From the NCBI GenBank assembly GCA_963812015.1, contig CAWETI010000002.1, positions 1-64,000 on the forward strand: 64,000 nucleotides of DNA, read 5' to 3'. The stretch is from an uncultured delta proteobacterium (GTDB taxonomy: Bacteria; Desulfobacterota; Desulfobaccia; Desulfobaccales; 0-14-0-80-60-11). Positions 2,341-20,718 of the stretch are shown here, piece after piece; position 1 is the first letter of the stretch, and each line of letters starts with the position of its first letter. Below the pieces are notes generated by a model. The model was not told the DNA's origin, searched no databases, and saw only the letters and a list, made by a program, of their open reading frames with translations. The translations under genes and the position numbers were made by a program.

Positions 2341-2719
2341 ACGCCGGAAAAGTGTGGCACAGTGTTGATCGCAGAGGGCAGCGGTGCATTGTCGCAGAGC
2401 TTGCATTCTGGATCGCCGAACAGGGACGCCGGCTCAAAGCCGGGGATAATTTCACAGACCTCCTCGCGACCCTGCAGAGTAAAAAGATCAACGTGCTGGT
2501 CATGGATGTCCGCCTGCCGGAAGAAATGGGTTATGGGGCCATTTCCAACGTCCAAGGACTGCACCGCCGGTTGCCCATCATGATTACGGCTGATGAAAAT
2601 AAGGCGGAGCAAAATAGCCGCATCCGGGATCAAGGGATTTCCGCTATCCGGTAAATTCCTTGGGGATGGATGGCCTCATAAGAGCCATCGCCAACGCTAG
2701 GGTGCGATCATCCCGATAA
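2341..2719 (+). pseudogene. Degenerate single-domain response regulator (receiver) gene
   Basis: Receiver-like pieces in shifting frames: GTVLIAEG..., INVLVMDVRLPEEMGY...LPIMITADEN..., RYPVNSLGMDGLIRAIANA*. Two frameshifts, and ACG where ATG is expected. Confidence 0.6.
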
Positions 2720-2922
2720 TCTCAGAGAAGGCGGCGATGCCATTACCCATGGAACCGCCCCCAGACACGGATGTTCCTGACCCGGTGAACGCCTTTGTGG
2801 TTCCGGGGATGAATAACTGAAGGAGTGCTGATCTCCACCATCAGGTGGGAGGACAACTGCCGTCGATCCTGGCTGCGGCCGGGGCCTCACGGCATCCGGA
2901 AATTTATTTAAGGGATAGAACT

Positions 2923-5900
2923 ATGCCCCCAGAAAAAGATGCAGTGACACAAGAAACGCCACGGAATAAGGGTAAAGTGGGTGCGGTGATGGTGGTAGGC
3001 GGAGGCGTCGCCGGCATGCAGGCGTCCCTGGACCTGGCCAACGCCGGCTTCTATGTTCATCTGGTGGAAACCAAGCCGGCCATCGGCGGGGTCATGGCCC
3101 AGTTGGACAAGACCTTTCCCACCAATGACTGCGCCATGTGTATTATTTCCCCCAAGCTGGTGGAATGCGGCCGGCATTTGAACATCGAGATCCACACCCT
3201 CACCGATGTGGCGGAGATTTCGGGAGATTCGGGGAACCTCAGCGTCACTCTCAAGAAACAGCCGCGCTATATCGATCAGGCCAAGTGCACCGGTTGCGGC
3301 GAGTGCACCAACGTCTGCCCGGTGACCATGTCGGACACCTTTAACGAGGGTCTGGCCGAGTGGAAGGCGACCTATCGCCTCTATCCCCAGGCGATCCCCT
3401 CGACTTTTGCCATCAAGAAATTCGACCGGGCCCCCTGCGTCCGGGCCTGCCCCGCCAACCTGAGCGCCCAGGGCTATGTCCAGCTCATCAAGGCCGGGAA
3501 ATATAACGAATCCCTCAGCCTCATCATGGACCGTCTGCCCCTGCCCGGGACCATCGGCCGCATCTGCCCCCATCCCTGCGAGAGCGACTGCCGCCGCCAG
3601 GAGATGGACGAGTCCGTGGCCATCTGCTCCCTGAAGCGGTTCGCCGCGGACCAGGCCGATTGGGACGCCCTGCCGGTGCCCGAAGTGCCCCAGAAAAATC
3701 TGTCCGTGGCCATCGTCGGGGCGGGGCCGGCGGGATTAAGCTGCGCCTATCACCTGGCCCTTCAGGGCTATCAGGCGGTGATCTTCGAGGCCGCCCCGGA
3801 AGCCGGCGGCTGGCTGCGCTACGGCATTCCGGAGTATCGCCTGCCCCGGGAAGTCTTGGGGCGGGAAGTGGATTATCTTAAGCGCCTGGGAGTGAAAATC
3901 CATTACAACTCCCCCATCGGCGCAGGACGCACCATCAACGATCTCCTCACCCGGGACGGGTTCAACGCCGTCTTTCTCGGAGTGGGGGCCCAGGATTCCA
4001 TCCGCCTGCCGGTGCCCGGAGCCGAGGCCGCCGGCGTCCTCTGGGGGGTGGAGTACCTGAAGGAAGTGAACTCCACCGGTGAATCCCCCACCCAGGGCAA
4101 ACGGGTGGTGGTCATCGGCGGCGGCAACGTGGCCATGGACGTGGCCCGGGTGGCCCGGCGCAAAGGGGCCGCCTCGGTGACCCTCATCGCCCTGGAATCC
4201 CCCGAAGAGCTGCCCGCCTCCCCCTGGGAAGTGGAAGAGGCCAAGGTCGAGGGCATCGAGATTGCCCATCGCTTCGGGGTCAAGCAGATCCTGTCCCAGA
4301 ATGGTAAGGTCACCGGCCTGGAATTGAAGGCGGTGGAACGGGTCTTTGACGAGCAGGGCCGTTTCGCCCCGGCGTATTTTGAAGATCAGGTCTCCACCCG
4401 GGAGGCCGACGTGGTCATCATGGCTATCGGCCAGAAGACCAATCTCAAGTTCATCACCCCGGCCGACGGCATCAAGCTGACGCCCCGGGGCTTGATCGAG
4501 GCCGATGCCAGCACCCTGGCCACCTCCCGTGAGGGCGTCTTTGCCGGTGGTGACGTGGTGACCGGCCCCTGGATCGCCATCGGGGCGGTGGCCGCGGGGC
4601 GGGAAGCCGCCATCTCCATCGACCGGCATCTTAACGGTCTGGATCTCAAGGCGGACCGTGAGGCCCCCTTAAGGCCCATCGAGCCCGGCAACTGGAATCC
4701 CATCCCCACGAACCAGCCCAAAGCGCCCCGGGAACACATGCCGGAGATGCCCCCGGTGGAATGGGCCAAGAGCTTCAAGGAGATCAACCTGGGCTTCACC
4801 GAGGCCCAGGCGCAGGCGGAGGCCGCCCGGTGCATTAACTGCGGGCTGTGTTCCGAGTGTATGCAGTGTGTGGCGGCCTGCCAGGCCGGGGCCGTCGACC
4901 ACAGCATGAAACCCGAAACCAAAGAGATCAACGTCGGGGCCGTGATCATGACCCCGGGGTATCAAGTCTTCAGTCCCGTCAAGTGTGATTCGTACCATTA
5001 TTCCAGTTATCCCAATGTGGTGACCTCCCTGGAGTTCGAGCGGATCCTCTCCGCTTCCGGGCCCTTCGCCGGACACCTGGTGAGGCCCTCGGACCACAAA
5101 GAACCCAAGAAGATCGCCTGGCTGCAATGCGTGGGTTCCCGGGATGTGAAATACCACACGTACTGTTCCTCGGTCTGTTGCATGTACGCCATCAAAGAAG
5201 CGGTGATTTCCAAGGAGCACGCTCCCTATCCCCTTGATACCGCCATCTTTTTCATGGACATGCGGACCTTCGGCAAAGACTTCGAACTCTACTACAATCG
5301 CGCTGAGCAGGAACACGGGGTGCGATTCATCCGTTCCCGCATCCACAGTATCGATGCCCTGCCGGGTGACGATTTGCAGATCCGGTATGCCGACGAAAGC
5401 GGCGCCGAGCAGCGGGAAGTCTTTGATATGGTAGTACTGTCCGCGGGCATGGAGGTCAGCCCCCAGGGCCGGAATCTGACCCAGATCCTGGGAGTAGATA
5501 CCAACACCCATGATTTTGTGGCCACCTCCCCCTTCTCGCCCGTGTCCTCTTCCCGTGAGGGCATCTATGTCTGCGGGGCCATGCAAGGGCCCAAAGACAT
5601 TCCCGAATCGGTCATGCAAGCTTCGGCTGCGGCCGGGGCGGTGGGCGCCACCCTGGGAGCGGTCCGCTGGACCGAGACCAAGACCCGGGTAGTGCCCGAA
5701 CCCAAAGACATCAAGCCGGAAGACACGCCCCGCATCGGGGTGTTTATCTGTAACTGCGGCATCAACATCGGCGGCTATATCGACATCCCGGCGCTGTTGG
5801 CATACGCCAAAACGCTGCCCAACGTGGCCTACGTCGAAGATAACCTCTTCACCTGTTCCCAGGACACCCAGGTCCGGATGACCGAGAACATCGACAAACA

Positions 5901-7389
5901 AAACCTCAACCGGGTAGTGGTGGCCGCCTGCACCCCCATCACCCATGAGCCCCTGTTCCGGGAGACCTTGATTGACGCGGGCTTGAACAAGTATCTCTTC
6001 GAAATGGCCAACATCCGGAACCAGGACTCCTGGGTGCACATGAAGGAGCCGCAAAAAGCCACGGAAAAAGCTAAAGACCTGGTGCGGATGGCGGTGGCCC
6101 GGGTTGCCCTGCTGAAGCCGCTGAAGGAAAAGCCCCTGACCATCAACCAGCGGGCCCTGGTTATCGGCGGCGGGGTCGCCGGTCTCAATGCCGCCCTCAA
6201 TCTGGGGGATCAGGGATTTGAGACCATTCTCGTGGAGAAGGAACCGGAACTGGGGGGCAACGCCCGCCGGATTCACAAAACCATCGAAGGCATGGACGTC
6301 CCGGCCTATTTGGACGGGCTCGTCCAGCGGGTGAAGTCCCACGACATGATTGAGGTCCTCACCGGCGCCAAGGTGGTGGGGTTCAAGGGCTACAAAGGCA
6401 ACTTCACCACGACCGTGGTGCCGGGGGCCGGCCAGGATGAACAGACGTTCGATCACGGGGCCGTGGTGTTGGCCACCGGCGCTTATGAGTACCATCCCAA
6501 GGAATTTCTCTACGGGGAACATGAGCGGGTGATGACCCAGATGGAACTGGGGGACTTTCTCCACAAAGCGCCGGCGGAGGCCACCAAGTGGAACCGGGTG
6601 GTCATGGTGCAGTGCGTGGGCTCCCGCAACGAAGAGAACCCCAACTGCAGCCGGATCTGCTGCCAGGGAGCGGTAAAGTACGCCTTGCAGCTCAAGGAAC
6701 TCAACCCGGACATGGATGTGATGATTCTCTACCGGGATATGCGCACCTACGGCTTCCTGGAGGATTACTACCGGGAGGCCCGGGACAAGGGCGTGCTCTT
6801 CTCCCGGTTCGAGCCGGACCATTTGCCCCAGGTCCACAATGACAACGGGCAATTGGGCGTTACCTTTGTGGATCACGTGCTGGGTCGCCCCGTCAACATG
6901 TCCGTGGACGCGGTGGTGTTGAGCGCCGGGGCCCGGGCCGCGGACACCGAGAAGTTGGCAACCCTGCTGAAACTTCCCCGGAACGCCGGCGGATTTTTCA
7001 TCGAGGCCCACGCCAAGCTGCGGCCGGTGGATTTTGCCTCCGAAGGCATCTTCCTCTGCGGCATGGCCCATTCTCCCAAGCTCATCAGCGAAAGCATCTC
7101 CCAGGCCATGGCTGCGGCCGCCCGGGCCGGTGGTTTTCTGGCTGACGTTAACCAGACCATCAGCGGCGTCACCGCGCACGTGGCGCCGGAGCACTGCGCC
7201 GCCTGCCTGGTGTGTGTCCGGTCCTGCCCCTACGGCGTGCCGCAGATCAATAAGGATAATGTCTCGGAGATCAACGAAGCCCTGTGCCAGGGCTGCGGCG
7301 TCTGTGCCTCGGAATGCCCGGCCACGGTTATCCAGCTGAGCCATTATGAAGATGACCAGATCAGCGCCAAAATCAAAACTTTATTCTAA
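2923..7389 (+). CDS. hdrA: HdrL-type flavoprotein: HdrA module with inserted GltD-like NAD(P)H oxidoreductase domain, fused to a second HdrA module and ferredoxin domains
   Basis: VGGGVAG and DKTFPTNDCAMC; CTGCGECTNVCP; GltD-like PCVRACP/GRICPHPCE, IVGAGPAG and IGGGNVAMD; two QCVGSR...CSxxCC motifs; GVFICNCG; C-terminal 2x[4Fe-4S]. ATG 2923 has AAGGGA upstream. Confidence 0.92.
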   Translation: MPPEKDAVTQETPRNKGKVGAVMVVGGGVAGMQASLDLANAGFYVHLVETKPAIGGVMAQLDKTFPTNDCAMCIISPKLVECGRHLNIEIHTLTDVAEISGDSGNLSVTLKKQPRYIDQAKCTGCGECTNVCPVTMSDTFNEGLAEWKATYRLYPQAIPSTFAIKKFDRAPCVRACPANLSAQGYVQLIKAGKYNESLSLIMDRLPLPGTIGRICPHPCESDCRRQEMDESVAICSLKRFAADQADWDALPVPEVPQKNLSVAIVGAGPAGLSCAYHLALQGYQAVIFEAAPEAGGWLRYGIPEYRLPREVLGREVDYLKRLGVKIHYNSPIGAGRTINDLLTRDGFNAVFLGVGAQDSIRLPVPGAEAAGVLWGVEYLKEVNSTGESPTQGKRVVVIGGGNVAMDVARVARRKGAASVTLIALESPEELPASPWEVEEAKVEGIEIAHRFGVKQILSQNGKVTGLELKAVERVFDEQGRFAPAYFEDQVSTREADVVIMAIGQKTNLKFITPADGIKLTPRGLIEADASTLATSREGVFAGGDVVTGPWIAIGAVAAGREAAISIDRHLNGLDLKADREAPLRPIEPGNWNPIPTNQPKAPREHMPEMPPVEWAKSFKEINLGFTEAQAQAEAARCINCGLCSECMQCVAACQAGAVDHSMKPETKEINVGAVIMTPGYQVFSPVKCDSYHYSSYPNVVTSLEFERILSASGPFAGHLVRPSDHKEPKKIAWLQCVGSRDVKYHTYCSSVCCMYAIKEAVISKEHAPYPLDTAIFFMDMRTFGKDFELYYNRAEQEHGVRFIRSRIHSIDALPGDDLQIRYADESGAEQREVFDMVVLSAGMEVSPQGRNLTQILGVDTNTHDFVATSPFSPVSSSREGIYVCGAMQGPKDIPESVMQASAAAGAVGATLGAVRWTETKTRVVPEPKDIKPEDTPRIGVFICNCGINIGGYIDIPALLAYAKTLPNVAYVEDNLFTCSQDTQVRMTENIDKQNLNRVVVAACTPITHEPLFRETLIDAGLNKYLFEMANIRNQDSWVHMKEPQKATEKAKDLVRMAVARVALLKPLKEKPLTINQRALVIGGGVAGLNAALNLGDQGFETILVEKEPELGGNARRIHKTIEGMDVPAYLDGLVQRVKSHDMIEVLTGAKVVGFKGYKGNFTTTVVPGAGQDEQTFDHGAVVLATGAYEYHPKEFLYGEHERVMTQMELGDFLHKAPAEATKWNRVVMVQCVGSRNEENPNCSRICCQGAVKYALQLKELNPDMDVMILYRDMRTYGFLEDYYREARDKGVLFSRFEPDHLPQVHNDNGQLGVTFVDHVLGRPVNMSVDAVVLSAGARAADTEKLATLLKLPRNAGGFFIEAHAKLRPVDFASEGIFLCGMAHSPKLISESISQAMAAAARAGGFLADVNQTISGVTAHVAPEHCAACLVCVRSCPYGVPQINKDNVSEINEALCQGCGVCASECPATVIQLSHYEDDQISAKIKTLF

Positions 7390-7400
7390 GGAGTCCAACG

Positions 7401-7853
7401 ATGGAACCGTTTGAACCCAAGATTGTCGGGTTTTGCTGCCACTACTGAGCTTATTCCGCCGCGGACCTGGCAGGTTCGATGCGGTTGCAGTATCCGCCCA
7501 ACGTGCGTATCATCGAGGTACCCTGCACCGGCAAAGTGGACATCTTGCATCTGTTGATGGCCTTTGAATACGGTGCCGACGGGGTCATCGTCGTAGGTTG
7601 CATGGAGGGAGACTGTCACTACAGCGTTGGCAATCTTTTCGCCAAAAAGCGGGTCCAGCGGGCCAAGAAGATCCTCGACAAGGTCGGCATCGGAGGCGAC
7701 CGGCTGGAGATGTACAATCTATCTTCCGGGATGGGACCGCGGTTCGCCGAGGTTATGCGGGAGATAACCAAAAAAGTGCTGGAACTGGGGCCCAGTCCCA
7801 TCAGAGTTGCGACAGGAAAGGCCACCAGGCCCATTGCGGAGGTAACTACATGA
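7401..7853 (+). CDS. mvhD: MvhD/FlpD [2Fe-2S] subunit, selenoprotein (Sec at TGA 7446-7448)
   Basis: AAGGAG RBS then ATG 7401 reads MEPFEPKIVGFCCHY-U-AYSAADLAGSMRLQYPPNVRIIEVPCTGK...GCMEGDCHY. The TGA sits at the conserved Cys position of the MvhD N-terminus. Confidence 0.93.
7459..7484 (+). promoter_or_regulatory. Bacterial SECIS-like hairpin
   Basis: CCGC-GGACCT-GGC-AGGTTC-GAT-GCGG; G-containing apical loop about 21 nt after the UGA. Confidence 0.7.
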
Positions 7854-8518
7854 TTAAGGCAGTGCCCAAGCCCCTGGAAGAAGTCCTTGACCGGGTCAAA
7901 GACTTCAATAAAGTATTAATTGCCGGCTGTGATGGCTGCGTCACCGTGTGCGAGGCCGGCGGTGCGAAGGAAGCCAAAGTGCTGGCTTCGGCCCTGAGGC
8001 TCTACTTCACCCAGCAGGGCCGGCAGGCCCAGGTGGATGACACCAGCCTGACCCGGCAGTGCGAAAAGGAGTACCTGGCGCAACTCTCCGACACGATTGA
8101 CAACTACGATGCCGTGGTCTCTCTGGCCTGCGGCTGCGGCGTCCAGTACCTGGCGGAGATGTACGACAAAAAGATCGTCTACCCCGGGGTGGATACCTGT
8201 TTTATGGGCGTCAACGAGGAACGGGGGCTCTATGCCGAACGCTGCCAGGCCTGCGGCCGCTGCATCCTGGCGGATACAGGCGGCGTCTGCCCCATCGCCC
8301 GTTGTTCCAAGCGCATGCTCAACGGCCCCTGCGGCGGCTCCGCCGAGGGCAAGTGCGAAATCAACAAAGATATCCCCTGCGGCTGGGAGCTGATTTATGA
8401 ACGGCTGAAGACCCTGGGCCAGCTGGACCGTTTTGAGAAACCCGTGGATCCCAAAGACTGGAGCACTTCCCGGGATGCCGGACCTCGTAAGATCGTCAGA
8501 GAGGATTTACGGATATGA
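7850..8518 (+). CDS. metV: Methylene-THF reductase small Fe-S/Zn subunit MetV
   Basis: GCDGCVTVC, RQCE, ACGCG, CQACGRC...CPIARCSK...NGPCGG...C...CGW; ATGA overlaps with mvhD and metF. Confidence 0.9.
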   Translation: MIKAVPKPLEEVLDRVKDFNKVLIAGCDGCVTVCEAGGAKEAKVLASALRLYFTQQGRQAQVDDTSLTRQCEKEYLAQLSDTIDNYDAVVSLACGCGVQYLAEMYDKKIVYPGVDTCFMGVNEERGLYAERCQACGRCILADTGGVCPIARCSKRMLNGPCGGSAEGKCEINKDIPCGWELIYERLKTLGQLDRFEKPVDPKDWSTSRDAGPRKIVREDLRI

Positions 8519-9450
8519 GCGTGACTACCCCCAGCAAACTGCAGAAAATCATCGCGTCGGGCAATTTCGCCCTCACTTCCGAGGTCGGTCCCCCACGGAG
8601 CGCCGATGGCAAGGCGGTTGAGGAAAAAGCCAACCTGATCAAGGATTATGTCGATGCCATCAACGTCACCGACAACCAGACCGCAGTCTGCCGGATCTCC
8701 AGCCTGGCCTGCTGCATTCGGCTCAAGCTCATGGGGCTGGAGCCGGTCCTCCAGATGGTGACCCGGGACCGCAACCGCATCGCTCTCCAGAGCGATATCC
8801 TGGGGGCGGCCTCCTTCGGCATTAACAACATGCTCTGCCTCACCGGCGACCACCAGCAATTCGGGGACCACCCCAAGGCCACCAACGTCTTTGACCTGGA
8901 TTCCATCCAGCTCATCCAGACCGTGAAGATGATGCGGGATGAAGGCCGGCTGTTGGGCGGTCACGAATTTGACGTCCGCCCCCAGATGTTCATCGGGGCG
9001 GCGGCCAACCCCTTCGCCGGTCCCAACGTCGCCATGCGGGTGGCCCGGCTGGCCAAAAAAGTGGCCGCCGGGGTGCAGTTCGTCCAGACCCAATGCATCT
9101 ATAACCTGGATAAATTCAAAGAGTTCATGAAAATAGTGGTGGACCGGGGTCTCCACGAAAAAGTGTCCGTCATGGCGGGGATCACCCCCATGAAAGGCGT
9201 AGGTATGGCCAAATATATGCAAAAACGGGTGCCCGGCATGGATGTTCCCGATGAGATCATACGCCGCATGGGTGGCGTTCCCAAGGATAAGCAGGCCGAA
9301 GAAGGCCTGACCCTGGCGGTGGAACAGATCGAGGAACTGAAGAGCGTTGAAGGCCTCCGGGGGTTCCACATCATGGCCATCGAGTGGGAAGAAAAAGTCC
9401 CGGAAATGGTGAAACGGGCCGGCCTCTATCCCAGACCCCAAGTGGCTTAA
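8515..9450 (+). CDS. metF: 5,10-methylenetetrahydrofolate reductase
   Basis: TSEVGPP, NVTDN, RDRNRIALQS, LCLTGDH, KKVAAG-x-FVQTQ. Confidence 0.95.
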   Translation: MSVTTPSKLQKIIASGNFALTSEVGPPRSADGKAVEEKANLIKDYVDAINVTDNQTAVCRISSLACCIRLKLMGLEPVLQMVTRDRNRIALQSDILGAASFGINNMLCLTGDHQQFGDHPKATNVFDLDSIQLIQTVKMMRDEGRLLGGHEFDVRPQMFIGAAANPFAGPNVAMRVARLAKKVAAGVQFVQTQCIYNLDKFKEFMKIVVDRGLHEKVSVMAGITPMKGVGMAKYMQKRVPGMDVPDEIIRRMGGVPKDKQAEEGLTLAVEQIEELKSVEGLRGFHIMAIEWEEKVPEMVKRAGLYPRPQVA

Positions 9451-13974: not shown

Positions 13975-16437
<2,463 letters not shown>

Positions 16438-16893
16438 TCAATTCTCGGGGATCTTAATGGTGCCGCGGATCAGATCGTTCATGGTTTGGGGCTTGGCCAG
16501 GCTCTGGCAGAGCAGCTCCTTGACCCCCCGGACGAAATGGTCGCGATCCACCGGTTGATGGGTCCCCATCACAATATTTATATCAGGAAATTCACGTTTT
16601 ATCAATGTCGTATAGGGCTTGATAAAGGGGCATAACGCTACCATACAAAATGACAGGTGCAGCGCATCTATGCGGAACTCGGCTAACGCCCGGACTCTTT
16701 TAAGAATCTTCTCCGGCGCGGCAAGAGTGGGACACCCGGCGCAATTAATGATGCCAATTAAATCCAGCGGTTCATCTTGGGGATATGGCTCGAACCAGCC
16801 CCGGCGTTTCCGCATATCGCCGAGACATACTACGGAAGCACAGTTCGTTTCTTGAGTGCAATTGGAGCAGGTAAGAATACCGATACGAGCCAT
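16438..16893 (-). CDS. CGGC-domain metal-binding protein
   Basis: IGILTCSNC...CASVVC...INCAGCP...HLSFC...CP...MGTH. Confidence 0.8.
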   Translation of the reverse strand: MARIGILTCSNCTQETNCASVVCLGDMRKRRGWFEPYPQDEPLDLIGIINCAGCPTLAAPEKILKRVRALAEFRIDALHLSFCMVALCPFIKPYTTLIKREFPDINIVMGTHQPVDRDHFVRGVKELLCQSLAKPQTMNDLIRGTIKIPEN

Positions 16894-16897
16894 AAAA

Positions 16898-16929
16898 CAG
16901 TTTCCGGTTTTCTATGTTCGGTTTTCGGT
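16898..16929. repeat. Heptamer array (CGGTTTT)n, left arm of an inverted repeat
   Basis: CAGTTTC CGGTTTT CTATGTT CGGTTTT CGGT; complementary to 17498-17529. Confidence 0.7.
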
Positions 16930-16967
16930 ATGAGATTGTGGTAATGTGATATTATTGGAACAACACA

Positions 16968-17459
16968 CTACTTTTTGACCCGCGGCACAACTTTAATCCC
17001 GAACATCACTTCACCGTAGCCGCCGCAAGCGACGCCCACATCCAGGCAGCGGACCGAATGCATGAAATGAAACTGGTTGGGGTCCAGCCCTTCGCTCAAG
17101 CGCTCGTTGATGAGGGCAACCGGCACCGCCAACTGCGATATGGCGTACACACACAGTCTGGGAGGACAGAACTTGGTGAGGAAATTGCCGTCCACATCCA
17201 GGATAAATTTATCCCCCTCCTGGTAGCCGGAATTGCAGTGCCGGGCCCGCACCACCTCGGCTTGGATGGAATAGCAGGCCGCGGCCCGGCCCAGCCGCTC
17301 CATTTGCCGCAGCCGGGGGTCTCCGGCCTGGAATTCCTTCAGGTCCGCCTCGGTGTAACCCACCTTGGCTCCGAAACGCTTGAGATCCTTTGGCTCTTCT
17401 TTATCTTCCATAAGGTCCGTAAATGGTGGGCCATGCCCACCCAACATTTTATCACTCAT
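16968..17459 (-). CDS. Hypothetical Cys-containing protein (start could be ATG 17411)
   Basis: HCNSGY...GDKFILD...LCVYA...CLDVG..CGG.G motif pattern; GC-rich codon usage. Confidence 0.7.
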   Translation of the reverse strand: MSDKMLGGHGPPFTDLMEDKEEPKDLKRFGAKVGYTEADLKEFQAGDPRLRQMERLGRAAACYSIQAEVVRARHCNSGYQEGDKFILDVDGNFLTKFCPPRLCVYAISQLAVPVALINERLSEGLDPNQFHFMHSVRCLDVGVACGGYGEVMFGIKVVPRVKK

Positions 17460-17497
17460 AACCTTCAGCGGGGGACATCACGGCGCTACCTGCTTTT

Positions 17498-17529
17498 ACC
17501 GAAAACCGAAAACCCGTAACCGAAAACCG
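17498..17529. repeat. Heptamer array (AAAACCG)n, right arm of an inverted repeat
   Basis: ACCG AAAACCG AAAACCC GTAACCG AAAACCG immediately after the dnaN stop. Confidence 0.75.
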
Positions 17530-17533
17530 TCTT

Positions 17534-18724
17534 TTAAAGGCTCATGGGCATGATGATGCTGAAGTAGTGGGGGTCCGTCTGGTCCACCAGGCAACAGGGG
17601 CGGTCCTTTTCGTTGACTTTAAGGATCACCATATCGCTGGTCATGGCGTTCAACGGCTCCAGGAAATACCGGGCGTTGAAGCCGATCTCCATGGGAAGGG
17701 CCTGGGCGTCGCCCTGTTCCATGAACAGGCCCACCACTTCCCGGCCTTCCCCCACCTCCGGGTTGTTGAAGGTGACTTCCAGGTGGTCCGGCATGAGCTT
17801 CAGGATCACGCCTTTGAAGCGCTCCGTGGACAACAGGGCAATCCGCCGGATGGTGTCGAACAAAAGGCGCCGGTTGATGGCGAAGCTATAGGCGAAGCTC
17901 TCCGGGATGATGCGCCGGTAGTCGGGAAATTTCTTGTCCAGGAGCAGCCGGATGAAGAGGTATTTGTCGTCGGCTTTTAAAGCCAGGCTCTGCTTGCCCA
18001 GCCCCAGGGAGACGTGCTCCTCTTCGGCCAGGAAGCGGATCACTTCCGCCATGCCTTTCCGGGGGATGAGGATGCCTTTGGCGATGGGAAATTGGCCGGA
18101 CTCCTGGAGGGGGCGTTCAATCAGGGTGAGGCGGTGGCCGTCGGTGGAGATGAGGCGCAGCCAATAGTCCAGGTCCGATTCAACCTCAGCCCCTTCCTCC
18201 GCCAATGATTCCGCCTGGGCCCCACCCCGGGGAAATCCCACCCGCTCCCAGAAGATGCTGGAGAGATGGTACTGCAGGTCGTCGGCCGAGACGGAAAAGA
18301 TGGTCTTTTCGATCATCTCCTTGACCATGCGGGATTCCACCTGCACCAGCTCCTGGTCGGTAATCTCCGGGACCGGGGGAAACTGGTCCGCCGGCAGGCC
18401 GTGGAGTTGGTACCGGGCATCCCCTTCCTGGATCTTCAGGTTGGAATTTTCCGTGCCCGTCAGGTCCAGGGTCTCACCCGGCAACTCTTTGATCAGGTTG
18501 TAGAGATAGTGGGCCTGGACGGTGATGGCCCCGTGTTCCATCACCTCCGCCGGGTAGAAACCCCGGAAACTCACCTCCAGGTCGGTGGCGGAAACGACCA
18601 CCCGGTTTTCATCGGTCTGCAGGAGAAAATTAGCCAGGATGGGCATGGTGCCCCGGCGGTCCACCACCCCCAGGGTCCGCCCCACTCCCTTCAACAAGGT
18701 TTCCCGATCGATCTTCAGGCGCAT
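17534..18724 (-). CDS. dnaN: DNA polymerase III beta sliding clamp
   Basis: MPILAN, SATDLE, STDGHRL, FPDYRRIIP, IGFNARY, IMPM. Confidence 0.97.
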   Translation of the reverse strand: MRLKIDRETLLKGVGRTLGVVDRRGTMPILANFLLQTDENRVVVSATDLEVSFRGFYPAEVMEHGAITVQAHYLYNLIKELPGETLDLTGTENSNLKIQEGDARYQLHGLPADQFPPVPEITDQELVQVESRMVKEMIEKTIFSVSADDLQYHLSSIFWERVGFPRGGAQAESLAEEGAEVESDLDYWLRLISTDGHRLTLIERPLQESGQFPIAKGILIPRKGMAEVIRFLAEEEHVSLGLGKQSLALKADDKYLFIRLLLDKKFPDYRRIIPESFAYSFAINRRLLFDTIRRIALLSTERFKGVILKLMPDHLEVTFNNPEVGEGREVVGLFMEQGDAQALPMEIGFNARYFLEPLNAMTSDMVILKVNEKDRPCCLVDQTDPHYFSIIMPMSL

Positions 18725-18729
18725 ATTTC

Positions 18730-18910
18730 TTTTCTCCTAAAAGATTAGAAATCTAATCGAATTAATAAGTACCCAGCGGTTGGTCGATAAGTAAGCCAAG
18801 TATTTAATTTTCCACACACTGTTATCTACAAAGAATAATTCCTACCTTGATGCGCTCGCCGGGTTATGCGTAACCGGCTCCAAGTCAGCCTCGGGGGCCT
18901 GTCGAAAAGT
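18730..18910. other. Putative replication origin (oriC-like) upstream of dnaN
   Basis: TTTTCCACA (18808-18816, matches TTWTNCACA), TTATCTACA (18822-18830), TGTCGAAAA (18900-18908), GGTCGATAA (18782-18790); AT-rich tract toward dnaN. Confidence 0.55.
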
Positions 18911-19009
18911 GAGTCAGTTGGACATATTTTCTTCAAGGTGCGGTTGACATCCAAATTCTCATGCTTAAATAAAATATTTTAGGGTGATCCAGCGGGTCCC
19001 CCAGTTTTC

Positions 19010-19036
19010 CTCGTTCCCAAGTTGTACTTGGGAACG
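19010..19036. repeat. REP-like palindrome
   Basis: CT-CGTTCCCAAG-TTGTA-CTTGGGAACG. Confidence 0.6.
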
Positions 19037-19059
19037 CCGTTATCTCCCCCGCTTGACCC

Positions 19060-20718
19060 TTACTTACATACCGCGCCCTGGCTGCCTGAGCTCACCATGC
19101 GGCTGTAACGGGACAGATACCCCTGTTTGACCTTGGGTTCCGGGGGCTGCCAGTTTTGCCGGCGCCGGGCCAGTTCGGCCTCATCCACCAGCAGGGTCAG
19201 GCTCTTCCCCGGGATGTCGATCTTGATCCGGTCACCCTCGTGCACCAAGGCGATGGGGCCGCCCTCCGCGGCCTCCGGCGAGATGTGGCCGATGGCCGCG
19301 CCGCGCGTCCCGCCGCTGAAGCGGCCGTCGGTCAGCAGGGCCACCTCCTTATCCAGTCCCATGCCGGCGATGGCCGAGGTGGGGGTGAGCATCTCCCGCA
19401 TGCCGGGGCCGCCCTTGGGGCCTTCGTAGCGGATGACCACGATGTCCCCAGGCTTAATTTTACCATCCAGGATGGCACGGGTGGCGTCTTCTTCGGCATC
19501 AAAGACCCGGGCCGCGCCTTCATTGACCAGCATCTGGGGGTCAACCGCCGATTGCTTGACCACCCCGCCGTCGGGCGCCAGGTTACCCCGGAGGATGGCA
19601 ATGCCCCCCTGGGGGTGGTAGGGGTGGCTCAGGGGGTGGATGACCTGCTCGTCCAGGACCTTGACCGCCGCCAGGTTATCCGCCACGGACCCCGCGGTGG
19701 CGGTGAGGGGGGCGCCGTCCACCAGGCCGGCTCCCATGAGGACCTTCATGACCGCGGGGACCCCGCCGGCCGCGTTCAAATCCTCCAGGTGGTGGGGCCC
19801 GCCGGGGCTCATGGAGCACAGGTGGGGGGTCTTGACGCTGATCTCGTTGAACAGGTCCAAGGACAGGTCGATGCCGGCTTCCCGGGCGATGGCCGGCACG
19901 TGGAGCACGGTGTTGGTGGAGCAGCCCAGGGCCATGTCCACCGCCATGGCGTTCTTGAAGGCCGTAAGCGTCGCAATCTGCCGGGGCAGGATCTGTTTGG
20001 CGACCAGCTCCATGATCTTGAGGCCGGCTTCTTTGGCCAGGCGAAAGCGGGCCGCGTGCACCGCTGGGATGGTGCCGTTGCCGGGTAGCGCCAGCCCCAG
20101 GGCCTCGCTCAGGCAGTTCATGGAATTGGCGGTGAACATGCCGGCGCAGGAGCCGCAGCCGGGACAGGCGCACTCCGCCAGTTCCTTGAGGTCATCTTCG
20201 CAGATCTTTCCGGCCTTCACTGCGCCCACCCCTTCAAAGACCGTGATCAAATCCACCGCCTGGCCCTTGAAGCGCCCGGCCAGCATGGGGCCGCCGGAAA
20301 TCAGGATGGCGGGGATGTTGAGGCGCAGGGCCGCCATCAGCATGCCGGGGATGATCTTGTCGCAGTTGGCCACCAGGACGAGGCCGTCCACGGGATGGGC
20401 CGTTGCCATGATTTCGATGGAGTCGGCGATGAGCTCCCGGGAAGGCAGGGAATATTTCATGCCGGCGTGGTGCATGGCCAGGCCGTCGCAGACGCCGATG
20501 ACCCCGAATTCCAGGGGAGTGCCGCCATTCAAGCGCACCCCGGCCTTGGCCGCCTGGGTGATCTTGTCCAGGTGGATGTGGCCGGGAATGAACTCGTTAT
20601 AGGAATTGGCGATGCCGATAATGGGCTGGTCGATCTCCCGGTCGGTTAACCCCATGGCCTTGAGGAGAGACCGGTGGGGATATTTTTCCAGGCCCAATTT
20701 CATCAGATTGCTGCGCAT
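19060..20718 (-). CDS. ilvD: Dihydroxy-acid dehydratase
   Basis: [48 protein letters not shown]. Confidence 0.98.

Follow-up and report, generated by a model that had tools for sequence, protein, structure and literature searches.

Which molecule serves as the third electron partner of the Hdr-type methylene-THF reductase has been a standing question since 2014, and the operon analyzed here poses it for a locus that lacks hdrBC. The window, which is the whole stretch of 64,000 nucleotides analyzed from an uncultured delta proteobacterium of the Desulfobacterota, carries the gene order hdrL–mvhD(Sec)–metV–metF on the plus strand at 2923-9450 (Table 1). We suggest, with a probability of about 0.5, that the operon encodes an hdrBC-less variant of the type IV methylene-THF reductase (MTHFR), in which the middle couple would be methyl/methylene-THF, the low branch would belong to NAD(H), and the third partner would be a high-potential carrier from outside the operon.

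Table 1. Features of the operon and of its upstream flank.
Feature	Position	Strand	Description
REC gene (receiver domain)	2345..2719	+	Two frameshifts compared with intact relatives; ORF 2352-2654 matches Pfam Response_reg
metF′ deletion remnant	2737..2889	+	About 150 bp; four collinear pieces match metF′ of relative L013
hdrL	2923..7389	+	1488 aa; fused HdrA pseudo-dimer with GltD-like insert (domain search and structure alignment)
HdrA module 1, first part	2980..3417	+	FAD Rossmann fold, TFPTNDCxxC, first half of inserted ferredoxin domain (motifs)
GltD-like cassette	3418..4827	+	Inside the inserted ferredoxin domain of module 1
HdrA module 1, second part	4828..5697	+	E706 and K758 (= 5ODC E356 and K409) and cluster cysteines intact
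HdrA module 2	5722..7386	+	N-terminal, TrxR-like and C-terminal ferredoxin domains; no inserted ferredoxin
mvhD	7401..7853	+	FlpD domain; selenocysteine at codon 16 (7446-7448)
SECIS-like hairpin	7456..7483	+	Core GGACCTGGCAGGTTC at 7463-7477
metV	7850..8518	+	Fe-S subunit of MetVF; PF12225 (DUF5981)
metF	8515..9450	+	PF02219 (MTHFR)

The operon and its upstream flank

The tight packing described in the first-pass annotation was confirmed, with an 11-nt gap between hdrL and mvhD and then two ATGA overlaps (mvhD/metV and metV/metF). The domain search that it proposed found Pyr_redox_2, Fer4_20 and HdrA2-like domains in the fusion, followed by FlpD, DUF5981 (MetV) and MTHFR. The reading as an Hdr-type methylene-THF reductase operon is supported, and the genome has acsB, one of the acsABCDE genes of the proposed check. 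As in type IV (Hdr-type) MTHFR, metV and metF are adjacent, the MetF catalytic residues are present, and hdrA and mvhD lie directly 5′ of metVF; hdrC and hdrB were not found in the same cluster. We file the operon as a putative variant of type IV, not as a strict member. The rnfC gene that marks type III (MetVF-RnfC2) had no match over the cut-off in the genome.

An in-frame TGA at codon 16 of mvhD occupies the Cys position of the homologues. The GACCTGGCAGG hairpin core 3′ of the TGA was present in 54 of the 56 TGA-type and 0 of the 30 Cys-type mvhD sequences examined. The folding z-score of the SECIS was only −0.7 to −2.0, and as this is unconvincing by itself, the SECIS claim is based on core conservation. 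The genome has selA and tRNA-Sec, so that UGA at the Cys position, a SECIS-like core and these two parts of the Sec machinery are found together, as expected of a selenoprotein MvhD. MetV has invariant cysteines in a 64-row alignment and had no match in the PDB; folded alone (pLDDT 84), it retrieved generic alpha/beta structures (best Z 9.4, rmsd 2.8, 101 aligned). MetF carries E23, D112 and Q193, which we take to be the catalytic equivalents. They are present in the alignment to 1V93 and kept in 105, 103 and 104, respectively, of the 105 MetF-class rows.

Allowing at most 1 mismatch, we found no sigma-54 promoter match 5′ of the operon; there were 15 matches window-wide, against 20.8 expected, and candidates occurred in 4 of the 11 related loci scanned (two of them from the same genome). 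The sigma-70 and terminator scans gave nothing operon-specific. Contigs of relatives in the RNA run X13 span the operon; such contigs are no measure of expression.

The 280 bases 5′ of the operon contain a metF′ remnant preceded by the frameshifted REC gene, both absent from the first-pass annotation. The frameshifts were seen in a three-frame comparison against the relatives L013, L018 and L019. In relatives, metF′ measures about 870 bp and encodes a divergent paralogue of MetF. Complete relatives have the order REC–metF′–hdrL–mvhD–metV–metF–REC, and the copy in the window is a trimmed form in which the downstream REC is missing. REC-metF′ is kept in 25 of 25 family operons having the full upstream flank. 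An assembly artefact was ruled out for the remnant, as contigs of runs X2, X3 and X13, in addition to those of X1, which may be the source run, bridge the deletion gap-free. A role of MetF′ as a substitute for HdrBC was also ruled out, as metF′ occurs beside hdrCB as well: in the phylum sample, it was found in 6 of 15 loci with hdrB upstream.

HdrL and its exchangeable cassette

The first-pass description of the hdrL product, two HdrA modules fused with a GltD-like pyridine-nucleotide domain, was borne out by domain and structure alignments. HdrL fusions are recognised by HdrA modules joined to a glutamate-synthase-like NAD(P) domain, with mvhD as the next gene, and this combination is present here. 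In solved Hdr complexes, the arm of one HdrA serves the flavin of its partner, MvhD forms the donor arm, and electrons of low potential leave through the inserted ferredoxin domain. In HdrL, the N- and C-terminal arm domains are on module 2, and the flavin site with E/K and the inserted ferredoxin domain are on module 1, the first part of which aligned to residues about 146-297 of 8RVV/8RVU. These alignments show HdrL, in its predicted architecture, as one HdrA dimer fused asymmetrically.

E356 and K409 are cited as the mark of a bifurcating HdrA flavin (PMC9430772). Module 1 has both (E706 and K758), and module 2 has G1210 (6550-6552) in the place of E356 and retains K1252. The spacing from E to K is 52 in module 1, against 54 in Moorella, and 42 in module 2 of both. 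The loss of the glutamate at the second flavin, with the first flavin retaining it, is new here. A free inserted ferredoxin domain, the mark of a ferredoxin-reducing HdrA, was not found in HdrL: in module 1 the domain is interrupted by GltD, and module 2 lacks it.

The motif ALES at the second Rossmann strand of the cassette, already noted in the first-pass annotation, lies at residues 423-426 (4189-4200), and E425 stands where NADPH-type GltD has Arg. After this strand, NADPH-type GltD/NfnB has Y-R-R, as in E. coli GltD and the NfnB-like protein of this genome, and the NAD-annotated PreT has A-R-E; HdrL has A-L-E. An NAD preference of the cassette would fit this comparison with E. coli PreT and GltD. 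It is very likely that the fusion supplies a pyridine-nucleotide site, as had been proposed and as Moorella HdrA does. The cassette in the window came from a paralogue. Among 25 family operons, the same position holds a YRR-type GltD in 15, nothing in 7, an LE-type GltD in 1, and NuoEFG-type cassettes (NuoEFG or NuoEF+GltD) in 2. These sequences suggest that the ferredoxin-domain exit is a modular socket with a swappable NAD(P)H-binding cassette, which is new here. Since the socket is empty in 7 of the 25 operons, the subfamily does not strictly depend on NAD(P).

Absence of hdrBC and comparison with known systems

As had been stated, hdrB is absent from the window, where no CCG (HdrB) match was found. 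The description as self-contained is not supported: the genome itself encodes hdrCB, and 40 of 41 family genomes encode an HdrB homologue; the remaining one, G183, has 16 CCG matches. The genome has three operons of the HdrL-type MTHFR kind, one of them with hdrCB, which lies on C3 in front of that paralogous operon; a paralogous operon with MetF′ lies at C2:990 kb. The genome also has five metV genes, dsrA, aprA and a menaquinone synthesis gene.

In the synteny survey, 47 of the 81 classified loci were hdrB-less over the stretch seen (at least 1.8 kb upstream and 1.5 kb downstream). In 42 of these 47 loci, E and K are both kept in module 1, and the module 2 glutamate is absent in 42 of 47 (20 of 23 after dereplication). 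At G1210 and in the EYGYG motif at 690-694, the hdrB-less proteins no longer have the residues that the hdrCB-linked ones conserve, so they may not bind HdrC at all. The losses of the glutamate and of hdrCB represent only 2 changes each on the 56-row tree, which gives no statistical power, and their link is read as a subfamily trait rather than as demonstrated co-evolution.

The first-pass annotation left room for novelty, and both the fusion and the hdrBC-less cluster are already published. In the accessible text on Moorella thermoacetica HdrCBA-MvhD-MetVF (PMC9430772, PMC8760232, PMC5861303), the order hdrA-mvhD-metV-metF is the same. The type IV HdrA of Moorella, with 1487 aa against 1488 aa here, has the same architecture and an NADH site (PMC9430772, PMC8760232): in both proteins there are two TrxR-like modules, a GltD insert, which in Moorella lies inside the first TrxR-like domain, and a second module without the inserted ferredoxin. 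Unlike Moorella, the window operon lacks hdrCB, has Sec in MvhD, and has Gly at E356 of module 2, whereas Moorella, compared through its published description, keeps E/K in both modules; relatives of the window operon add REC, metF′ and a second REC. Clusters of hdrA-mvhD-metVF without hdrBC are described in Thermacetogenium phaeum (PMC6895022) and type I Acetothermia (PMC9586279), where hdrBC is likewise encoded elsewhere; an HdrL-type fusion, Sec-MvhD and MetF′ do not appear in the accessible descriptions of these clusters. The T. phaeum HdrA is only 31% identical to that of Moorella (PMC6895022). Desulfobacterium autotrophicum HdrL-MvhD (PMC2702500) likewise joins HdrA to glutamate synthase; an NADH site is predicted in the fusion, and the mvhD that follows often encodes a selenoprotein; the accessible text describes it without a link to metVF, and its function there is predicted.

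The arm, E/K flavin, HA4-type cluster and inserted ferredoxin domain, together the full set for a single bifurcation unit, are shared with the methanogen HdrABC-MvhD (5ODC, 8RVU; PMC12350162). Unlike that homodimer, HdrL is a single asymmetric chain with GltD in the exit domain and no HdrBC, and MetVF stands in place of the hydrogenase or formate dehydrogenase. The type IV MTHFR of Sporomusa ovata (PMC9430772) also has a two-module HdrA, MvhD and MetVF, with E/K at one flavin site only; unlike the window operon it has HdrCB and no GltD insert, and in the latter it resembles the empty-socket relatives.

Proposed electron flow and its meaning

In the reading that we prefer, MvhD and the arm would feed the module 1 flavin, and MetVF would dock on MvhD, as the solved Hdr complexes suggest. 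Because of this arrangement, methyl/methylene-THF (−200 mV) would be in the middle and NAD(H) (−320 mV) on the low branch. The high-potential branch would run via the HA4-type clusters to a carrier encoded outside the operon, possibly menaquinone or a disulfide, which would be reached in trans via HdrCB or QmoC-like proteins, or else by way of the altered module 2 flavin. The net reaction would be 2 methyl-THF + NAD+ + X(ox) ⇌ 2 methylene-THF + NADH + X(red), and it should be reversible, since about −1 kJ/mol was computed for menaquinone from published potentials. Ferredoxin would not be required, and the enzyme would serve the Wood-Ljungdahl pathway of a sulfate reducer.

This electron flow is favoured by the match of HdrL to the Moorella HdrA, which holds the NADH site, by the intact E706/K758 and the E and K kept in most hdrB-less loci, and by the varied socket fillings, as a low-potential exit could have. 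The current Moorella hypothesis shares the redox order, with menaquinone, and the genome combines acsB, dsrA, aprA and the menaquinone synthesis gene with no rnfC over the cut-off. Counting against it are the lack of a high-potential partner within the operon, the lost hdrCB-linked residues (G1210, EYGYG), the few tree changes behind the glutamate/hdrCB association, and the empty sockets. Port roles also vary, as the benzoyl-CoA reductase model routes electrons otherwise, and no match to MetV was found in the PDB.

In the scheme of the first-pass annotation, NADH would be the middle donor and enter at GltD, MvhD-MetV would lead to methylene-THF as the high-potential couple, and ferredoxin or another low-potential carrier would be reduced. 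This was the original Moorella proposal, a ferredoxin-reducing scheme with methylene-THF as the high-potential acceptor; it is thermodynamically feasible (near −5 kJ/mol), and requires no HdrBC, which fits the operon. The C-terminal ferredoxin domain is intact, as are all cluster cysteines. However, it inverts the port roles of the methanogen Hdr, and the ferredoxin-binding exit is filled by GltD in module 1 and missing from module 2. Work on Moorella did not confirm a part for ferredoxin, and none was observed in T. phaeum. The assignment of ferredoxin as low-potential acceptor and methylene-THF as high-potential couple is probably wrong, given that GltD occupies the exit and MvhD is the donor arm in solved Hdr, and we consider the whole scheme quite improbable.

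Somewhat unlikely is a self-sufficient, non-bifurcating NAD(H):methylene-THF oxidoreductase, in which HdrL would be a wire from GltD to MvhD/MetVF, functionally like type III, and the loss of HdrBC would be the loss of the third partner. The many hdrB-less loci and their missing module 2 glutamate agree with it, but module 1 keeps E/K in most of these loci, and the Moorella complex showed no NADH oxidation when only methylene-THF was supplied. T. phaeum fractions reduced methylene-THF with NADH, and ferredoxin-dependent bifurcation was not observed, which would also agree; the authors, in the accessible text, infer a route via quinones (PMC6895022). It is very improbable that the operon is a decaying, redundant copy, or that its complex is incomplete and needs MetF′ from the paralogous operon at C2:990 kb. 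The frameshifted upstream REC, the deleted metF′ in a family that otherwise keeps REC-metF′, the missing downstream REC and the multiple metV genes point that way, but none of the four core genes is disrupted, and the catalytic residues and SECIS core are present. Three other studies contain relatives, at about 88-93% identity, that share the metF′ deletion, so the core has persisted beyond it.

The operon is common and its enzyme type already known. Methyl-THF oxidation is an energetic barrier for sulfate reducers and syntrophs in the reverse acetyl-CoA pathway. A wider reading, which we hold to be unlikely, is that the HdrA2/HdrL subfamily found without hdrBC in Desulfobacterota represents a fifth type of MTHFR, which would bifurcate as a complete machine with no need of HdrBC. 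Its module 1 flavin would split the electrons of methyl-THF, the low branch would leave through a recombination-exchanged cassette (NAD, NADP, HydABC-like module or free ferredoxin), and the high branch would end at the module 2 flavin, rebuilt by Glu-to-Gly to reduce quinone or disulfide directly. If true, it would explain how complete-oxidising sulfate reducers pass the methyl-THF barrier. The family holds natural controls: HdrCB and the second-flavin glutamate are each present in some members and absent from others, and one socket has five fillings; these turn the competing models into direct comparisons and could help to identify the third electron partner.

The window operon and its trimmed flank

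The tight packing claimed in the first-pass annotation, with its short gap and two overlaps, was borne out by the coordinates, and domain searches agreed with the hdrL-mvhD-metV-metF labels. The in-frame TGA of mvhD aligns with the Cys of homologues, and among the compared loci the core GACCTGGCAGG lies downstream of it in 54/56 TGA-type sequences versus 0/30 Cys-type sequences; selA and tRNA-Sec were both found in the genome. MetF residues E23, D112 and Q193, which presumably have catalytic roles, are kept in the window and are conserved in 105, 103 and 104 of 105 MetF-class rows, respectively. The window operon is a real, common variant of a known enzyme type.

We examined 30 loci of the family (hdrBC-less HdrA2/HdrL operons), 25 of them with a full upstream flank. 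All 25 show the order REC–metF′–hdrA2/hdrL–mvhD–metV–metF, where REC is a receiver-domain gene and metF′ a divergent metF paralogue. A second REC lies 3' of metF in 24, and the contig of the remaining one ends there. None of the 25 holds hdrCB within the operon; in three family operons hdrCB lies 3-4 kb upstream in divergent orientation. The window's own first REC is frameshifted, a remnant of metF′ survives and the REC usual after metF in relatives is lost, and by this comparison the window copy is a trimmed form of the family operon. The remnant is real and not recent, because contigs from three other studies bridge it gap-free at about 88-93% identity. At the D112 position MetF′ has D in 21/50 and E in 26/50 rows, with Q in 21/50 at the Q193 position; judged by these sequences, it is probably no normal catalytic subunit.

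The window starts with the 3′ part of tRNA-Sec (1-66). The complete gene stands at the end of contig C4 of the same genome, which places the contig break inside tRNA-Sec. The following low-GC stretch (about 70-1950; 0.36-0.38 at 501-1500), possibly a small island, has similar hairpin-like repeats on both sides (near 80-120 and 1910-1950) and two ORFs without Pfam matches. Ordinary housekeeping genes (gyrB, dnaN and ilvD-like, labelled by reading) occupy 13975-20718.

Coordinates of the features discussed. C2 and C3 are contigs of the host genome, and L137 and L138 are compared loci; LE-type and YRR-type refer to the GltD motif after the second Rossmann strand (ALES in the window, Y-R-R in NADPH-type GltD)
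Feature	Position	Strand	Remarks
hdrL	2923-7389	+	1488 aa; domain searches
mvhD	7401-7853	+	11-nt gap after hdrL; TGA at codon 16
metV	7850-8518	+	ATGA overlap with mvhD
metF	8515-9450	+	ATGA overlap with metV
metF′ remnant	2737-2889		150 bp, what survives of metF′ in the window
Second operon	C2:990,673-998,788		metF′, YRR-type hdrL, Sec-mvhD, metVF, REC
Third operon	C3:943,740-931,537		hdrC, hdrB, LE-type hdrL, Cys-mvhD, metV, divergent metF, two further HdrA-like genes
NuoE/NuoF/NuoG-like cassette in HdrA ferredoxin domain	L137:7041-13138		hdrA2 split into three genes
NuoE/NuoF/NuoG-like cassette plus GltD	L138:5892-13262		frameshifts; hdrA2 split into three genes

HdrBC in the host genome and the phylum

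Named near relatives, with MetV identity up to 93%, are Desulfobaccales or Deltaproteobacteria MAGs, which suggests Desulfobaccales as the order of the host. A search of the genome for acs genes had been proposed, and acsB was matched over the cut-off, together with dsrA, aprA and one menaquinone synthesis gene; rnfC gave no match over the cut-off in this genome. We take further genes to be acsD, cooS, acsC, acsE, fhs, nfnAB and qmoABC, labels that come from reading the sequences and not from profile results. In all, metV occurs five times in the genome, and three of its operons have the order hdrL-mvhD-metV-metF, one of them being that of the window. HdrBC is available in trans, because hdrC and hdrB are present in the C3 operon, and an HdrB homologue occurs in 40/41 family genomes; the claim of a self-contained enzyme is therefore unproven.

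Elsewhere in the genome, a lone metV without adjacent metF follows a nitrogenase-like gene cluster, labelled by reading (C2:1075737-1076408), and a metV-metF pair without hdrL-mvhD is divergent from fhs and nfnAB-like genes (C2:139550-146062). Several phylum loci (L086, L088 and L127) have fhs-hdrL-mvhD-metVF adjoining nfnAB-like genes. Two further hdrL-mvhD loci (C3:2010034-2022728 and C3:702081-709825), with an in-frame TGA after TFPTND, are linked to formate-dehydrogenase-like and hydrogenase-like genes.

MetV was matched in 123/151 phylum genomes. The sample comprised 80 loci, chosen for flank among the 150 matches listed, with 133 further matches beyond these, and 47 of the 80 encode a two-module HdrA with MvhD and MetV. 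Here hdrB lies just upstream in 15, further upstream in 4 and downstream in 3; it is absent from the visible stretch in 20, where the GltD insert is found in nine, and the flank is too short in 5. The downstream flank covered was mostly < 3 kb.

At L070, L073 and L129, FdhA-like, NuoF-like and GltD-like genes stand directly 5' of metV-metF with no HdrA, and from gene content would form another NAD(P)H-to-MetVF route. A same-order relative with an LE-type hdrL operon carries an HdrC/HdrD-like gene in pieces 3' of metF (L107:1446-2771), a possible cis partner.

Socket and flavin sites of HdrL

The alignment of module 1 (the first HdrA module of HdrL) to methanogen HdrA starts at the Rossmann fold, and the inserted ferredoxin domain of this module is split by GltD, at residues about 166-635. 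Module 2 lacks an inserted ferredoxin but carries both the N-terminal domain and the C-terminal ferredoxin. Opposite the bifurcating-flavin signature, E356 and K409 of 5ODC, module 1 has E706 and K758, and module 2 has G1210 and K1252. In contrast, the Moorella HdrA, of 1487 aa and HdrL-like architecture, is described in the accessible text of PMC9430772 with E/K in both modules.

Across 81 classified loci (9/90 rows without module 1 were dropped; two pairs share a genome), module 2 keeps the Glu in 17/18 with hdrB just upstream, the exception being an alignment gap, versus 5/47 without hdrB, of which 42 retain both E and K of module 1. Dereplication at 80% gave 12/12 versus 3/23, and the EYGYG motif of module 1 is likewise lost in the hdrB-less set of these rows. 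On a 56-row tree the Glu and hdrB traits change only twice each, which leaves the pair test without power.

Compared with its orthologues L015 and L019, the window HdrL shows 33-57% identity over residues 243-617 and 71-93% in the remaining bins; against the C3 paralogue the same residues reach 67-83% and the bins past 618 reach 40-72%. Many of the closest cassette matches (83-87%) among the best 120 database matches have HdrA modules only about 50% identical; the motif is LE-type in 118 of these 120 and unparsed in the other two. Grouping of the window GltD with its backbone sisters was rejected (AU p about 1e-4), the group having been defined after the trees were viewed. Among the 25 family operons with a full upstream flank, the slot holds YRR-GltD in 15 (one of which has a second, empty-socket copy after it), is empty in 7 and holds LE-GltD in 1, NuoE/NuoF/NuoG-like genes in 1 and these plus GltD in 1, with hdrA2 split in three. 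These comparisons indicate that the GltD slot in the HdrA ferredoxin domain is a swappable socket. At the position of E425 in the window HdrL, E. coli PreT, whose annotation is NAD-dependent, likewise has Glu and E. coli GltD has Arg, and the domain likely prefers NAD.

Electron route and significance

In the Hdr complexes of methanogens, MvhD and the HdrA N- and C-terminal domains are reported to form an arm that serves the flavin of the partner HdrA, HA4′ is the way out for the high-potential electron, and the inserted ferredoxin domain is the exit point that receives the shuttled low-potential electron (PMC12350162, accessible text). HdrL holds exactly one such arm-flavin-exit unit. Mapped by analogy, MetVF would sit at the donor arm, with MetV placed on MvhD, while the low exit would serve NAD(H) and the high branch a third carrier; we give this reading a probability of about 0.5. 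The same redox order has now been proposed for Moorella with menaquinone as the third carrier (PMC13391211, in part), and our own arithmetic from -200, -320 and -74 mV (methyl/methylene-THF, NAD(H), menaquinone) places the reaction near equilibrium. The available portion of PMC9430772 reports S. ovata pull-downs that show MvhD with HdrA, HdrB and MetF, and MetV with HdrA and with MetF. The pairs determined there do not include MvhD-MetV.

A plain NAD(H) wire is a somewhat unlikely alternative, since the Moorella complex, whose NADH site is HdrA, showed no NADH oxidation with methylene-THF alone (PMC8760232, accessible text). The first-pass annotation had NADH as middle donor, methylene-THF as high-potential acceptor and ferredoxin reduced. 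Such coupling seems improbable to us: port mapping from methanogen Hdr would put NAD(H) at the low exit, and PMC8760232 leaves ferredoxin unconfirmed in Moorella. That the window copy is redundant or incomplete appears more improbable still, although the genome has five metV genes and the window has a frameshifted REC, a metF′ remnant and no last REC.

The novelty first envisaged is largely published. The hdrBC-less operon is real, but the fusion (PMC9430772) and hdrA-mvhD-metVF with hdrBC located elsewhere (PMC6895022, PMC9586279) appear in the accessible parts of these papers. From similarly partial texts, HdrL was defined in PMC2702500, clusters with hdrCB are given in PMC5736913 and PMC7325909, metF adjoins HdrABC in Seep-SRB1g (PMC10553843), Desulfobacca acetoxidans MetF is the deepest bifurcating Met homologue by the count of PMC6085437, and the Moorella type IV MTHFR is also treated in PMC5861303; PMC5109826, PMC11287216 and PMC10327494 proved not relevant. 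In the searched literature, covering few subscription papers, neither the REC–metF′ operon nor an exchange of the socket nor loss of the glutamate in module 2 was described. With its modular socket and asymmetric flavins, the family is useful as a test set.
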